The notes: a model not told the origin generated them from the sequence alone. A DNA stretch of 64,000 bases from a virus (IMGVR_UViG_3300027782_000030:128001-192000); one strand, 5' to 3'; positions 23,790 through 31,600 are shown, counted from the first letter of the stretch. A program made the numbers and translations.

Positions 23790-24941
23790 ATGAATAATTT
23801 TATAGTTTATAACCCATCATCTTTGGATGGGACAGTATACAATATATTTTTTAATATTTTTGGTAGATATACAGATATCGTAGAAGATGTTAAACTGTTT
23901 AGTGGTATTTCAGTCTTAACATTAAGAGAAGATTTATTGTTAACAAAAAATCCACTAATGTTTAATTATTATGAAATTTACATGTACAGAAAATCTAAAG
24001 GGTTACCTACAAAAATTATCATTGATTGGTCATTAGAGGGTCAATGTCATAATTCAAGTTTATCAACTTTATTCAAGGAAAACGAACTTAATATTGATAA
24101 AGATATATTATTTGTACATAATGATTCTTCTAATAGAATTTGGGTTCCGTTTAATATTGGACAACAGTTAACTATTGATTACCATGCATTAGATGCATAT
24201 AAAAGGTGTATTATTACCTCTAGCAATTTGACTGACAGAACCTTAGTAAAAGACAGAAAAAATGGATTAAATTTATTAATAGGTAAATTAAAAACAAAAC
24301 ATTCTAGATTTTTGGCAGCATATTATTTTTATAAATATGATTTACTTGATAGTGCTGTATTAGGTTTGCATGTACTACCAGAAGATATTGTCACAAGGAT
24401 GAAACTACATCCTGCATATTATGATATGAACTTTTATAATAAAATTGTACCATTATTAGGACCAGCGGATTCAGTTTCTAAACTACACGATACGAATGAA
24501 GGGTGTACAGCAGAAGATGGCGGGTGGCCATTTGATCCAAACATATTTAAAAATTCTAGTATAAGCTATGTTTGTGAAACCTATGATATTGACAAAGGAA
24601 TTTTTCCATACTTAGTGACAGAAAAATTTTATAGGTCTATTATTAATAAACATCCGTTTGTAGTGCAAGCCGGTTCAGGTCAATTAAACACTGTTAAATC
24701 TTTGGGGTTTGAAACCTTTTCATCTATCATTGATGAAAGTTATAATGATTATGATGTTCTTGATTATTCACATGTTGAAAAAACTGTATTAGCCGCAAAG
24801 GATTTTTTATCAAAACTATCTAATAATGCTGATAAAATACAAGAAATTGTAGACTATAATTATAATCGTTGGCTATCAAGAAGTAAGGATGAATATGATA
24901 AGACTACTGATTTTTTTATCAGATTTATAAATAATCAGTAA
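23790..24941 (+). CDS. Glycosyltransferase-like protein, divergent paralog 5
   Basis: SYVCET, VTEKFY..HPF and LGFETF..IDESYN. Confidence 0.5.
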   Translation: MNNFIVYNPSSLDGTVYNIFFNIFGRYTDIVEDVKLFSGISVLTLREDLLLTKNPLMFNYYEIYMYRKSKGLPTKIIIDWSLEGQCHNSSLSTLFKENELNIDKDILFVHNDSSNRIWVPFNIGQQLTIDYHALDAYKRCIITSSNLTDRTLVKDRKNGLNLLIGKLKTKHSRFLAAYYFYKYDLLDSAVLGLHVLPEDIVTRMKLHPAYYDMNFYNKIVPLLGPADSVSKLHDTNEGCTAEDGGWPFDPNIFKNSSISYVCETYDIDKGIFPYLVTEKFYRSIINKHPFVVQAGSGQLNTVKSLGFETFSSIIDESYNDYDVLDYSHVEKTVLAAKDFLSKLSNNADKIQEIVDYNYNRWLSRSKDEYDKTTDFFIRFINNQ

Positions 24942-24949
24942 ATAAAAGT

Positions 24950-25260
24950 ATTGTTGTAAAAGCCGTGAGGAAAGAAGCAAGTCAAAAGACGGGCAAGACG
25001 GGGGTGCGAATCCCCCCACCTCCACCAAAAGCATACTAGAGTGACGCTGGGGAAGAGTAATAGGCAGCGGTCGATAAATCTTCCAAGTATGCTTCTGATG
25101 GGGGTGACTAGAATCGATTGACGGATGAGTAGATGAGTGGACAACACGAGAGGCGATGGACGTAATCCAAGCAAAATCTATAAATGCCAACGATGAGGTA
25201 TTTTCTTTAGCCGCATGAGGCTGAGACGGAGTAGGACAGACTCTGTAAAATAACCAACCT
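24950..25260 (+). ncRNA. ssrA: Circularly permuted (two-piece) tmRNA gene (outer boundaries approximate)
   Basis: The acceptor piece comes first: T-arm GGGGG-TGCGAAT-CCCCC (25000-25016) and CACCTCC-ACCA (25017-25027). The 5' piece GGGGGTG (25100-25106) pairs with it and forms G3:U70. Tag ORF at 25186-25218 reads ANDEVFSLAA*. Confidence 0.92.
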
Positions 25261-25261
25261 G

Positions 25262-25290
25262 TAATAGGCCCGCAAGGGCCTATTATTTTG
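25262..25290 (+). terminator. Rho-independent terminator of the tmRNA gene
   Basis: TAATAGGCCC-GCAA-GGGCCTATTA followed by a T-rich run. Confidence 0.85.
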
Positions 25291-25316
25291 TTGTTTTTTC
25301 GCAACAAACCCAAAAT

Positions 25317-25345
25317 TTGACATTAATTCGGCATAAGCGTATACT
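25317..25345 (+). promoter_or_regulatory. Early sigma70 promoter
   Basis: TTGACA-17-TATACT. Confidence 0.85.
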
Positions 25346-25354
25346 ATATCTATA

Positions 25355-25747
25355 GTGAGAAACAAGGAGAGCGAAATGAGCGAACTGACTTACAAGACTT
25401 GGGAAGAGTACACTCCGCTTGAGCAGGCCGCAATGACCTACTGGGACATGTACAAGGACGCTTACAATTTCCGCCCCCGTAGTGTAGACACGTCCACATG
25501 GACGCTGGCCGACTTCCAAAAGGAGTTCGAAACCCTTCAGTTTATCATCGACCGTGATGAGGCCCAGCGTATCGAGGACGAGGCTGCGGCCGTGACTCGG
25601 TTCGAAGCCCGTATTGCTAGCATCATCCAACTTGGTGCTAGGGACCGTGCAATGGCACTGCGTTGGATTCACGAGGCTGAGGACACCGGCGGCGACGATG
25701 AGTACCTCTGCTACACGGTTGGCATCCCTTATGGATACTTCAAATGA
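25355..25747 (+). CDS. Hypothetical early protein
   Basis: 130-aa ORF with GC-richer codons. The ATG at 25376 after AAGGAG may be the true start. Confidence 0.7.
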   Translation: MRNKESEMSELTYKTWEEYTPLEQAAMTYWDMYKDAYNFRPRSVDTSTWTLADFQKEFETLQFIIDRDEAQRIEDEAAAVTRFEARIASIIQLGARDRAMALRWIHEAEDTGGDDEYLCYTVGIPYGYFK

Positions 25748-25857
25748 CATTCACTTTAACTACCCCAACTGGTAAGGTTATGCAGTTCTATTTGCAGGCT
25801 ATGGCTGAAATGTATCAGACACTTTACCAAGGCACAATCACTAAGGTTTCTGCTTGA
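25744..25857 (+). CDS. 37-aa hypothetical early peptide
   Basis: MTFTLTTPTGKVMQFYLQAMAEMYQTLYQGTITKVSA, with an ATGA overlap with the upstream gene. Confidence 0.5.
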   Translation: MTFTLTTPTGKVMQFYLQAMAEMYQTLYQGTITKVSA

Positions 25858-25882
25858 CATTAATTCAGGCAGTTGCTATAAT
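25854..25882 (+). promoter_or_regulatory. Early sigma70 promoter
   Basis: TTGACA-17-TATAAT. Confidence 0.85.
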
Positions 25883-25916
25883 CTTTTTATCGTAGTTTTT
25901 TCAACAGGAGTAAGAA

Positions 25917-27017
25917 ATGGCTCAAGTATCTGACAATCTCACCGTTACTAGTGTTCAGGCCCGTAAGGCAATTCTCAAGGCGTTCAAGGTCAAACGTCCC
26001 GTGTTTCTTTGGGGTCCTCCCGGAATCGGTAAGAGTGAGGTTGTTTCCGAAATCACCGAGGAGCTCGGTGGTTTCATGATTGATTTGCGTATGGCGCAAA
26101 TGGAACCCACTGACATTCGTGGTATTCCCTTTTTCAACAAAGACAATGGCAAGATGGACTGGGCGCCCCCGGTTGATCTTCCTGACGAGGAACTTGCTAG
26201 CCAGTATCCTATCGTCTGTTTGTTCTTGGACGAGATGAACTCGGCTGCCCCTGCTGTACAGGCTGCAGGATATCAGTTGATTCTCAATCGCCGTGTTGGT
26301 AAGTACAAACTTCCTGATAACGTGGTGATTGTCGCGGCAGGTAACCGTGATAGCGACAAGGGTGTTACTTATCGTATGCCGATGCCCCTTGCTAATCGGT
26401 TCTTGCATATTGAAATGCGCCCCGACTTCACTTCGTGGCAGAACTGGGCAGTTAACAAAGGTATCCACAAGGATGTGGTTGGTTATCTGTCATTCGCTAA
26501 ACAGGATCTCTATGACTTTGATTCAAAGTCCTCTAGCCGCGCATTTGCTACTCCCCGTACTTGGTGCTTTGTCAGCGATTTGTTGAATGATGAAGAGGAT
26601 ACTGATTCCGATACCCTGTTCAACTTGGTTGCAGGTTCTGTTGGTGAAGGTCTTGCTGTTAAGTTTATGGCACACCGTAAGGTTGCGGGTCAGATGCCCG
26701 AGCCTAGCGACATTCTCGCAGGTAAGGTCAAGGAACTCCGTGTCAAGGAAGTGTCGGCAATGTACTCCCTCACGATTAGCCTGTGCTATGAATTGAAGGA
26801 TGCGCTTGACAACAAGCGTGTATCTAACAAACAGTTCCATGAAATGGCTGATAATTTCTTCAGTTACATCATGGCTAACTTTGAAACTGAGTTGGTCGTA
26901 ATGGGTGCAAAGGTCGCTCTGAAAACTTATCGTCTTCCGATCGAACCCAGTCAGTTGAAGCATTTTGATGACTTCCACAAGAAATACGGCAAGTACATTG
27001 TAGAAGCAGGTAACTGA
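25917..27017 (+). CDS. MoxR-like AAA+ ATPase
   Basis: Walker A GPPGIGKS, Walker B LFLDEMN, VAAGN and LANRF. Confidence 0.88.
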   Translation: MAQVSDNLTVTSVQARKAILKAFKVKRPVFLWGPPGIGKSEVVSEITEELGGFMIDLRMAQMEPTDIRGIPFFNKDNGKMDWAPPVDLPDEELASQYPIVCLFLDEMNSAAPAVQAAGYQLILNRRVGKYKLPDNVVIVAAGNRDSDKGVTYRMPMPLANRFLHIEMRPDFTSWQNWAVNKGIHKDVVGYLSFAKQDLYDFDSKSSSRAFATPRTWCFVSDLLNDEEDTDSDTLFNLVAGSVGEGLAVKFMAHRKVAGQMPEPSDILAGKVKELRVKEVSAMYSLTISLCYELKDALDNKRVSNKQFHEMADNFFSYIMANFETELVVMGAKVALKTYRLPIEPSQLKHFDDFHKKYGKYIVEAGN

Positions 27018-29983: not shown

Positions 29984-30285
29984 TGTCACCTGAATTTATA
30001 TCCAAATGGGAACACATCCTTGAGGATGTTGAAAAGCAAAAAATACCCGTGCAATTTATTAAAAAAATAGTTATTAAATTACAAGGCATGGGTAGAAAAC
30101 AGCAAACAATCAACATTGAGAAGTTTTTAAATCAAGGATTGGACCCAGATCAAATTGAAGAAGCGGTAAGCAGGAAGCTTCAAGAACTAGACGATACTAT
30201 TACCAGTGTAGAGTTTATTCTTAATGTTCAAAGCATTGCCGATACGGTTCAACCTACTACAGATGAGTTATTGAAAAATTTATGA
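29983..30285 (+). CDS. Hypothetical protein
   Basis: 100-aa ORF coupled to both neighbours. Confidence 0.7.
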   Translation: MSPEFISKWEHILEDVEKQKIPVQFIKKIVIKLQGMGRKQQTINIEKFLNQGLDPDQIEEAVSRKLQELDDTITSVEFILNVQSIADTVQPTTDELLKNL

Positions 30286-30755
30286 ATTTGATTGTGGCCT
30301 GTGATCCAAAAGGTGGTATTGGATATCTGAACAAATTACCCTGGAGTAAAATCGAGGGTGATTTGCTACGCTTCAAAAGACTAACACAAGATAAAACCGT
30401 TGTTATGGGCCGTAATACTTGGGATAGTCTTCCAATGAAACCATTACCTAACAGGTTTAATGTTGTAGTAACTACCAAACCAATCCAGTTACCTGCCAAT
30501 GTTAAAACTATTTCAAATTTAAATGATTTAAAATATTTTCACGAACCATGGATAATGGGTGGTGCAGCACTAATCAGATCCTGTTGGGAAAAAATTAATA
30601 AAATTCATTTGACTAAAACCTTTGTTGAATATGCCTGTGATACTTTTATAGATTTAAGAAAATTACACGGCGAGTTTAGAATTTCGCATGAAGAGATTCA
30701 TAGCGATCATGTATATGAAATTTGGGATAGAGATTATCCCGACTATTGGAAATAA
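30282..30755 (+). CDS. folA: Dihydrofolate reductase
   Basis: IVACDPKGGIG, LPWSKIEGD, VVMGRNTWDSL, PLPNRFN and IMGGA. Confidence 0.95.
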   Translation: MNLIVACDPKGGIGYLNKLPWSKIEGDLLRFKRLTQDKTVVMGRNTWDSLPMKPLPNRFNVVVTTKPIQLPANVKTISNLNDLKYFHEPWIMGGAALIRSCWEKINKIHLTKTFVEYACDTFIDLRKLHGEFRISHEEIHSDHVYEIWDRDYPDYWK

Positions 30756-31600
30756 ATGTGAAATTATACTTAGAGTTACTTAAAGATATACTAGATAACG
30801 GTGATGATAAAGACGATAGAACTGGTGTAGGAACTATATCGGTATTTGGTAGACAATTACGATTTGATTTACGCAAGGGATTTCCCGCTGTTACTACTAA
30901 AAAACTAGCATGGAAAGCCTGTGTAGGTGAATTGCTATGGTTTATCGAAGGTAGTGGGGATGAACGCAGATTAGCAGAGATAACACATGGTACTAGAGAT
31001 GGCACTGTTACTATTTGGACTCCAAATGCTTTGGCATCTTATTGGAAACCTAAAGCCAAGTTTGAAGGGGATTTGGGTAGAGTATATGGAGTACAATGGC
31101 GAGATTGGGTAACCAATTCAAGGCATATTGACCAATTGACAAATTTGTTAGAAGGATTGAAATCAGATCCTAGTGGTCGCAGACATATTCTTAGTGCATG
31201 GAATGTTGGTGAATTAGATCAAATGGCATTGCCACCTTGTCATATTATGAGTCAATATTATGTGAACAAGAACCGTGAATTGAGTTGTCATATGTATCAG
31301 AGGTCAGTAGATGTTTTCTTGGGTCTACCTTTCAATATTGCTAGTTACGCTCTACTAACTCATTTGATTGCCCATCATTGTGGTTACAAAGTTGGTGAAT
31401 TAGTTATTAGTACAGGGGATACACATATCTATAAAAACCATGTAGAACAAGTTAAAGAACAATTATCTCGTGATCCATTACCCTTACCTACATTAATGCT
31501 ACCAGTAGAAAAGAAAGATATTTTTGAAATGACTATGAATGATATACACTTAGAAGGATATAGTAGTCATGGTCCAATCAAAGCGGAAATGGCTGTATGA
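30746..31600 (+). CDS. thyA: Thymidylate synthase
   Basis: DRTGVGT, GRVYGVQWR, LPPCH, YQRSVD and GLPFNIASY. The GTG at 30758 may be the real start. Confidence 0.96.
   Translation: MEINVKLYLELLKDILDNGDDKDDRTGVGTISVFGRQLRFDLRKGFPAVTTKKLAWKACVGELLWFIEGSGDERRLAEITHGTRDGTVTIWTPNALASYWKPKAKFEGDLGRVYGVQWRDWVTNSRHIDQLTNLLEGLKSDPSGRRHILSAWNVGELDQMALPPCHIMSQYYVNKNRELSCHMYQRSVDVFLGLPFNIASYALLTHLIAHHCGYKVGELVISTGDTHIYKNHVEQVKEQLSRDPLPLPTLMLPVEKKDIFEMTMNDIHLEGYSSHGPIKAEMAV

Follow-up and report, generated by a model that had tools for sequence, protein, structure and literature searches.

A circularly permuted, beta-type tmRNA gene in a freshwater jumbo myophage

Does a large freshwater phage carry a complete gene for a two-piece transfer-messenger RNA (tmRNA; ssrA), and, if it does, what would the phage use it for and when? 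The question is raised by a locus at 24939–25299 on the + strand of what we call the window, a 64,000-nucleotide (nt) stretch comprising bases 128001–192000 of the IMG/VR virus record IMGVR_UViG_3300027782_000030, whose contig is 200,570 bases long and 58% complete according to CheckV. A sequence-only reading of the window had described a phage-encoded, circularly permuted tmRNA gene behind late-type promoter motifs. All of the elements that it named (the T-arm, CACCTCC-ACCA, GGGGGTG, the resume context, the tag, the GCAA-loop terminator, TATAAATA and TAAATA) were confirmed in the sequence, each at the position given for it.

Searching the entire window against 4,227 Rfam families returned two families only, both matched at 24929–25288 (+). 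The match to tmRNA_permuted (RF04321) scored 111.5 bits (gathering score 47, E 6e-21), covered the full model (1–213) and was repeated when the whole contig was searched. The match to beta_tmRNA (RF01850) scored 98.2 bits (gathering score 84, E 1e-28) and was the top scorer within the tRNA/tmRNA clan. No glutamine riboswitch or other Rfam family was found beside the gene at gathering score. When run at -ps90, ARAGORN reported one permuted tmRNA only in the 200,570-base contig, at window positions 24935–25309 with the tag ANDEVFSLAA*; at -ps80 and below, its output was largely noise. At default settings the program reported neither a tRNA nor a tmRNA in the window. Both computational searches that had been proposed for this locus thus recovered the gene, and for annotation it follows that default ARAGORN overlooks it and Rfam RF04321 detects it.

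The order of the parts is permuted. The T-arm and the 3′ strand of the acceptor stem, with CCA ending at 25027, come before the acceptor 5′ strand (GGGGGUG, from 25100) and the tag frame. The parts are given below with the support for each; L099 is a viral contig carrying a close relative of the gene.

24939–25299 (+): the proposed transcription unit as a whole, a circularly permuted tmRNA (ssrA)
24926–24933 (+): TATAAATA, the T4 late-promoter consensus, inside the 3′ end of an upstream open reading frame (ORF) of 383 residues; role doubtful (sequence)
24939–24944 (+): TAAATA, candidate late-type −10 element of the tmRNA unit (start of L099 homology, −10 position, enrichment, gp55-like factor)
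24951–25027 (+): acceptor piece, the tmRNA 3′ half, ending in CCA; 5′ end approximate (RF04321 and RF01850 alignments, ARAGORN 3′ tRNA domain, L099 alignment)
24952–24957 (+): UGUUGU, 5′ strand of the outer helix P2a that joins both pieces; partner ACAACA at 25140–25145 (read by hand)
25000–25016 (+): T-arm GGGGG/UGCGAAU/CCCCC, with a stem of 5 base pairs (bp) and a 7-nt loop (sequence, Rfam, ARAGORN)
25017–25027 (+): acceptor-stem 3′ strand CACCUCC (25017–25023), discriminator A (25024) and encoded CCA (25025–25027) (sequence, cofold)
25028–25099 (+): 72-nt intervening segment, one long hairpin, predicted to be removed at maturation (fold −19.6 kcal/mol)
25100–25299 (+): coding piece, the tmRNA 5′ half, with acceptor 5′ strand GGGGGUG, tag and terminator (Rfam, ARAGORN, L099 alignment)
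25109–25111 (+): D-loop analogue UAG (covaries with the T-loop UGCGAAU)
25180–25185 (+): resume context AUAAAU, that is, ATAAAT and then GCC (sequence)
25186–25218 (+): tag frame GCC AAC GAT GAG GTA TTT TCT TTA GCC GCA TGA, encoding ANDEVFSLAA* (ARAGORN, RF01850 alignment)
25261–25299 (+): intrinsic terminator, an 11-pair stem with a GCAA loop (hairpin 25261–25286), then a T run (hairpin search)

Cofolding reproduced the perfect 7-bp alanyl acceptor stem that had been read from the sequence. GGGGGTG (25100–25106) and CACCTCC (25017–25023) form seven intermolecular pairs, with G3:U70 at 25102:25021, and together with the discriminator A and CCA they make the alanine identity set complete. The minimum-free-energy cofold gives the acceptor stem and the T-arm, not the comparative P2 helices, and was not used for P2. 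When paired by hand, P2a forms six of six pairs (24952–24957 with 25140–25145), whereas the automatic Rfam alignment misplaces this helix and marks mismatches. For P2d, in which automatic alignments also mark mismatches, five of the seven pairs form, and in four of these five both partners have changed compared with the family consensus.

The surrounding contig is that of a freshwater jumbo myophage. Its T4-type major capsid protein, Gp23 (PF07068, E 3e-98), is 63–67% identical to those of its nearest cultured relatives, the 287–469-kb myophages Vibrio phage 2.275.O, Pseudomonas phage PA5oct and Sinorhizobium phage Phosso. The contig also has a gene for a gp55-like late sigma factor (phrog_12791, E 4e-72; phrog_234, E 1e-21), adjoining a gp47/SbcD-like gene, and 21 tRNA genes called by ARAGORN. 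Among 17 DNA sequencing runs that contain the stretch, 14 are labelled freshwater metagenome and 3 'metagenome', and 12 of the 17 contain at least half of the sampled words. Downstream, the tmRNA is followed by genes of phage families (phrog_21968, a MoxR-type ATPase, a DUF2201/VWA protein, DHFR and ThyA); no family match was obtained for the upstream neighbours. With both Rfam families above their gathering scores, Gp23 and gp55-like genes on the contig and the same layout in independent viral contigs, the claim of a phage-encoded two-piece tmRNA holds: the gene is a genuine circularly permuted tmRNA carried by a phage.

These independent viral contigs, L050 and L099, share the layout of the locus, with flanking proteins 71–97% identical to those of the window and a tmRNA gene 85% identical. 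In the pairwise alignment, TAAATA (24939) is the precise point from which L099 is similar. Hardly any change is seen in the acceptor piece or in the first part of the coding piece, and the spacer is preserved, including an A-to-G change that maintains pairing. The tag of L099 is ANDDYFGEVRLAA*, compared with ANDEVFSLAA in the window, a difference made up of a 9-nt in-frame indel with synonymous changes in the common codons. Downstream of the stop codon the two sequences diverge, and the terminator stem is preserved with its loop changed from GCAA to TTCG. Synteny and this pattern of change in the relatives indicate that the gene is under selection. The window, L050 and L099 constitute a divergent sub-branch of a larger viral family and have an insertion of ~14 nt in the acceptor piece, which accounts for their low Rfam scores.

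We defined this larger family by an exact 28-mer consisting of the T-arm, the acceptor 3′ strand and ACCA. The 28-mer is present in 106 IMG/VR contigs, and a coding piece lies downstream of it in 98 of these, as it does in the window. ARAGORN called 83–86 of the 28-mer contigs as permuted tmRNAs, with tags such as ANDSRFALAA, ANDSQFALAA and ANDERFALAA, and Rfam assigned 16 of 16 family members to beta_tmRNA (90–145 bits). The family contains 20 different tags, including forms of 12–13 residues, and the variation falls in the middle positions. Among 54 unique family genes, GGGGGUG and G3:U70 are kept in 53, the tag is ten residues long in 51, and the Leu at tag position −3 is encoded by four synonymous codons. 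Compensatory changes are seen in P2a and P2d across the family, and the P2a-homologous helix covaries (CG/TA, TA/GT/GC). A second viral scan took the canonical bacterial T-arm as its pattern and added at least 47 permuted genes from viral contigs, and by the two pattern scans permuted tmRNAs are present in well over 100 IMG/VR contigs.

A blastn search of the window gene and a typical family member against 50,697 deposited phage genomes found no close relative, only short T-arm matches and a 68% match in Stenotrophomonas phage DLP_6. In that phage, KU682439.2 102829–103037 is a probable permuted tmRNA that is annotated as 'hypothetical protein' or unannotated. A probable permuted tmRNA also lies at ~102520–102950 of Caulobacter phage CcrRogue (JX100814), unannotated in the record.

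Several family members differ in their surroundings or spacers. In 18 of 99 family genes (L006, L008, L012, L014, L033, L045, L048, L055, L062, L067, L078, L083, L091, L092, L093, L096, L098 and L100), the spacer between CCA and GGGGGTG is 141–175 nt long and nearly filled by an ORF of 42–52 codons, for which three unrelated ORFs were seen. This spacer-gene layout was considered for the window and ruled out, its 72-nt spacer being free of any ORF. The 78-nt spacers of L047, L054 and L013 hold the T-arm-like GGTTCAAGTCC, so that a tRNA-like element may lie inside the spacer. In L013 (1–4406) an array of at least 13 tRNA genes has the permuted tmRNA at one end.

We compared the viral genes with 37 bacterial beta-type two-piece genes from GTDB representatives. 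A sample from the phylum of a Rhodobacter genome yielded alpha-type genes only, and the order of genome G133 yielded no beta-type genes. In all 37 bacterial genes a T-loop UUCGAYU occurs with a GG D-loop analogue, and the spacers are 3–49 nt long. This elbow is absent from the window, which has UGCGAAU with UAG, the combination present in 67 of 67 genes of the viral 28-mer family. Covariation links the T-loop to the D-loop analogue. In alpha-type genes xGCxxxx goes with (C/U)AG, the combination UGCGAAU and UAG is found among them, and Rhodobacter capsulatus has an identical 31-mer. The exact 28-mer occurs in 10 of 185,579 species genomes, none of them betaproteobacterial. As judged from these motifs, the joining of a beta-type body to an alpha-type T-loop/D-loop elbow is a minor novelty of the viral genes. 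An alpha-like elbow as a general trait of phage permuted tmRNAs was rejected, because the at least 47 further viral permuted genes have the canonical T-arm.

In its best-conserved part, the window gene is at most 71% identical to any of the 37 bacterial genes. Phylogenetic analysis placed all 37 in one clade (99/97), with the window and L050 outside it, and trees built without the 28-mer columns split the alpha genes from the viral and beta genes (99/97). Viral monophyly was not rejected, with an AU p value of 0.26, and the trees, of ~200 columns, fit either one viral clade or a bacterial clade nested within the viral genes; the viral set in them is biased because it was selected by the 28-mer. 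The phylogeny that had been proposed as a check places the window gene outside the bacterial clade. The further suggestion that the tag points to a proteobacterial host agrees with the betaproteobacterial type of the RNA, although this indication is weak, as the ssrA type of phage Melnitz shows that phage type and host need not match (PMC9004378).

When would such a gene be transcribed? In the family alignment, bacterial genes, like many viral ones, have TATAAT 7–10 nt before the acceptor piece, and the TAAATA at 24939–24944 stands at the position of this −10 box. Columns 1–20 of alignment A2 compare L018, L022, L024, L077, L042, L003 and L087, which have TATAAT at the −10 position, with the window, L050, L017, L002, L004, L103, L021 and L079, which have ATAAATA/TAAATA there. 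Upstream of genes in general, ATAAATA occurs within 5–60 nt of 27 of 177 genes, compared with 1.7 expected from its genome-wide density (~16-fold), and TAAATA within the same distance of 48 genes, compared with 6.5 expected. The alignment at −10 is consistent with a late-type promoter having taken the place of a host-type one, and the alternation of TATAAT and ATAAATA/TAAATA at one site suggests that the tmRNA gene has been coupled to different stages in the programmes of different phages. The conserved TAAATA and the gp55-like sigma factor of the phage itself make late transcription the likelier timing, and we put its chances at about even.

The other motif in the proposal of late supply fared less well. 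The exact 8-mer TATAAATA occurs 5 times in the window where 14.4 are expected, and so is rarer than chance, and the copy at 24926–24933 is not conserved in L099, because L050 and L099 lack the 383-residue ORF that holds it. The sequence-only reading of timing is thus plausible for its TAAATA element, with the enrichment of ATAAATA and the gp55-like factor, and doubtful for TATAAATA. The ORF itself (23790–24941, +) lies directly upstream of the tmRNA and has no Pfam or PHROG match; its absence from the syntenic L050 and L099 means that an insertion or deletion took place exactly at the 5′ edge of the tmRNA unit. Just past the terminator, at 25317–25345 (+), is a strong sigma-70-like promoter (TTGACA, 17 nt, TATACT; 11/12), which precedes the phrog_21968 gene (25376–25747) and is kept in L099.

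Environmental libraries gave a hint of expression. In the lake metatranscriptome run X19, contigs with 95–99% identity lie over 24964–25142 (depth 12.9) and 25113–25256 (depth 33.5), and a separate contig, of depth 9, lies at 26240–26380 in the ATPase gene; no contig in this run covers the flanks 24000–24923 and 25260–26183. RNA runs X18 and X20 contained no contig of the window gene, X18 having only a 39-nt conserved part of another family member. The phage ssrA is probably expressed, and we take the X19 contigs as a hint of this rather than as proof of processing.

Some details of these libraries stand apart. Two of the X19 contigs start at 24964 right after adapter-like letters, CTTCCGATCT, which may mark a recurrent molecule end within the predicted acceptor piece or an artefact; as they abut an adapter, these ends are not interpretable as a transcript start. 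A joint from 25014 to 25113 with 31 other letters was present in a single X19 contig. In DNA run X1, over window positions 24924–25091, depth rises from ~20 to 80–137 across the conserved tRNA-like part, and loose ends match an L002-type spacer, so several phages with this tmRNA family coexist in one lake sample.

We consider it likely that 24939–25299 (+) is one transcription unit, a phage permuted ssrA that depends on host SmpB and supplies the phage with its own ribosome rescue. The precursor would fold by pairing of CACCUCC (25017–25023) with GGGGGUG (25100–25106), a complementarity that is seen directly in the sequence. By homology, a host RNase P cut would leave G25100 as a 5′ end, and trimming by host nucleases would stop at the encoded CCA (25027), so that the 72-nt hairpin spacer would be lost and the acceptor and coding pieces held by base pairing. 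Charging by host alanyl-tRNA synthetase would then rely on G3:U70, and delivery of the RNA to ribosomes stalled on broken mRNAs would fall to host SmpB and EF-Tu. Translation would resume at GCC 25186 and add ANDEVFSLAA, whose LAA end would direct the product to ClpXP-type proteolysis, as is established for tmRNA tags generally. In this way the phage would have a source of ribosome rescue of its own at a time when the expression of host genes is being dismantled.

Several points weigh against this proposal. The gene is a divergent member of its kind, scoring 111.5 bits on RF04321 where the collected bacterial genes score 141–176, it is invisible to ARAGORN at default settings, and its P2d carries two mismatches in seven pairs. 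The RNA-library evidence consists of contigs only, and DNA carry-over is possible in RNA libraries; because one X19 contig bridges the spacer, it shows precursor or DNA carry-over, not processing. Finally, SmpB (PF01668) had no match at E up to 1 in the window, as the sequence-only reading had noted, or in the 200-kb contig, which is 58% complete. The RNA would thus be tied to a host protein that may or may not suit it, unless SmpB is encoded in the unassembled 42%. Phage tmRNAs are usually found without their own SmpB, and such absence is no bar to membership of the RNA family.

Could the RNA instead be made and enter ribosomes, but compete with host tmRNA and alter the fate of tagged proteins, for instance by a tag that adaptors or proteases recognise differently, or act as a sensor or decoy of trans-translation? 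The variation of the family tags in their middle positions, with 20 tags that include 12–13-residue forms, would accommodate such a role. A mycobacteriophage DS6A tmRNA that lacks a tag frame has been reported to inhibit endogenous tmRNA in E. coli (PMC11915505), and selective tagging was raised as a possibility by Buchholz et al. (PMC9004378). However, the window tag has the AND start and LAA end in common with bacterial beta-type tags, so ordinary degradation tagging is favoured, and no sequence feature points to inhibition; we regard a role of this kind as improbable. A captured host ssrA that the phage no longer uses, or never used, would explain an Rfam score below those of bacterial genes, the weakened P2d and the failure to find smpB on the contig. 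Such a passenger would hardly be expected to show at most 71% identity to the 37 sampled bacterial genes, synteny and a selection-type pattern of change in diverged relatives, and a lineage present in 98 further viral contigs, and we give this explanation very little credence.

The locus might also be bacterial DNA, a mis-assembled chimera or an integration-site remnant (attP/attL); a remnant in a bacterial chromosome had been named by the sequence-only reading as grounds for abandoning its claim. tmRNA genes are common prophage integration sites (PMC4383910), and in the second viral scan 42 of 119 contigs had a canonical tmRNA T-arm around which no gene was called, in many cases at a contig end. 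Here, however, both halves, the tag and the terminator are present, not merely a 3′ fragment; no tyrosine integrase was found across the 200-kb contig; and phage genes lie on both sides, with identical junctions in the independent contigs L050 and L099. Both outer boundaries of the gene are crossed without a break by contigs of DNA run X1, over 24000–25026 at the upstream edge and 25147–25778 at the downstream edge, and none of these contigs spans the spacer. A remnant or chimera is contradicted by this evidence and seems to us scarcely credible. A working phage ssrA, dependent on host SmpB, therefore remains our preferred reading of the locus.

On a wider scale, the family could represent a phage-resident lineage of two-piece tmRNA rather than repeated borrowing from hosts, with swaps between TATAAT and ATAAATA promoters, and phages may be a reservoir or vehicle that carries permuted ssrA between bacterial classes. 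The combination of beta-type body and alpha-type elbow is shared by the 98 further viral contigs, which are freshwater ones, and is missing from the 37 sampled bacterial beta-type genes. We offer this reading tentatively and think it rather unlikely. If it were true, a promoter swap within the lineage would set the timing of ribosome-rescue supply during infection.

Beyond the tmRNA, at 30282–31600 (+), the DHFR and thymidylate synthase genes are neighbours, arranged as frd-td is in T4. Over ~100 nt, the ThyA gene matches Yersinia T4-like phages at 84% of nucleotides, and a megablast search of the 12-kb neighbourhood matched a thymidylate synthase fragment only.

Phage two-piece tmRNAs have been published before, and the window gene is therefore a new example of a kind already known. 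Buchholz et al. (2022) described two-piece ssrA in the Methylophilales (OM43) phage Melnitz, Pelagibacter phage Mosig and related pelagimyophage contigs, and reported 53 two-piece tmRNAs in 18,146 phage genomes, 50 of the 53 being aquatic (PMC9004378). A 2025 tmRNA database lists 79 phage sequences (PMC11915505), and huge phages carry tmRNAs, sometimes with SmpB (Al-Shayeb et al. 2020, PMC7162821). The betaproteobacterial two-piece tmRNA is the 'third lineage' of Sharkady and Williams (2004), as cited in PMC9004378. To these the present gene adds a well-documented freshwater beta-type example, and it shows genes of this sort to be conserved and syntenic, and probably to be transcribed in the environment. 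Large lake phages commonly carry their own ribosome-rescue RNA without SmpB, and related phages use either a host-type or a late-type promoter element, which makes the timing of phage-supplied trans-translation a testable question as soon as a host has been cultured.

Like Melnitz and Mosig, the phage studied here combines a complete permuted ssrA with a lytic aquatic myophage genome, T4-type late-transcription genes and a thymidylate synthase gene close by. The Melnitz gene groups with alphaproteobacterial ssrA, is described as having an early promoter, and contains a glutamine riboswitch in the 3′ part. The window gene differs in being beta-type (RF01850) and preceded by a late-type motif, and no riboswitch reaches the Rfam gathering score there. 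A blastn search of the window gene against Melnitz gave no match, and Mosig matched a typical family member over a 54-nt stretch only. CcrRogue and phiCbK-like Caulobacter phages (JX100814) likewise have a phage-borne, permuted gene, with a T-arm and acceptor 3′ strand 94% identical over 36 nt. The CcrRogue gene scores 88 bits on RF04321, has a long spacer of 104 nt and differs from the window gene in its alpha-type tag (VAANDNAPFAVREAIAA), very divergent body and long branch in the tree. With the one-piece tmRNAs of mycobacteriophages, Streptomyces phages and huge phages (PMC11915505, PMC7162821), the window gene shares the presence of a phage ribosome-rescue RNA beside a large tRNA set. Those genes are not permuted as the window gene is, and some huge phages bring smpB, whereas the window contig does not.

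The window gene also resembles the bacterial RF01850 genes. It has their order of parts, a hand-paired P2a and a weakened P2d, their AUAAAU/GCC resume context, ANDExFxLAA-type tag and terminal hairpin, together with a PK1 region, CGAGAGGCGAYGGACGUAAUCC, that is nearly identical to that of one bacterial group. It departs from them in its UGCGAAU/UAG elbow in place of UUCGAYU/GG, its 72-nt rather than 3–49-nt spacer, the ~14-nt insertion in the acceptor piece, and an upstream TAAATA where the bacterial genes have TATAAT.

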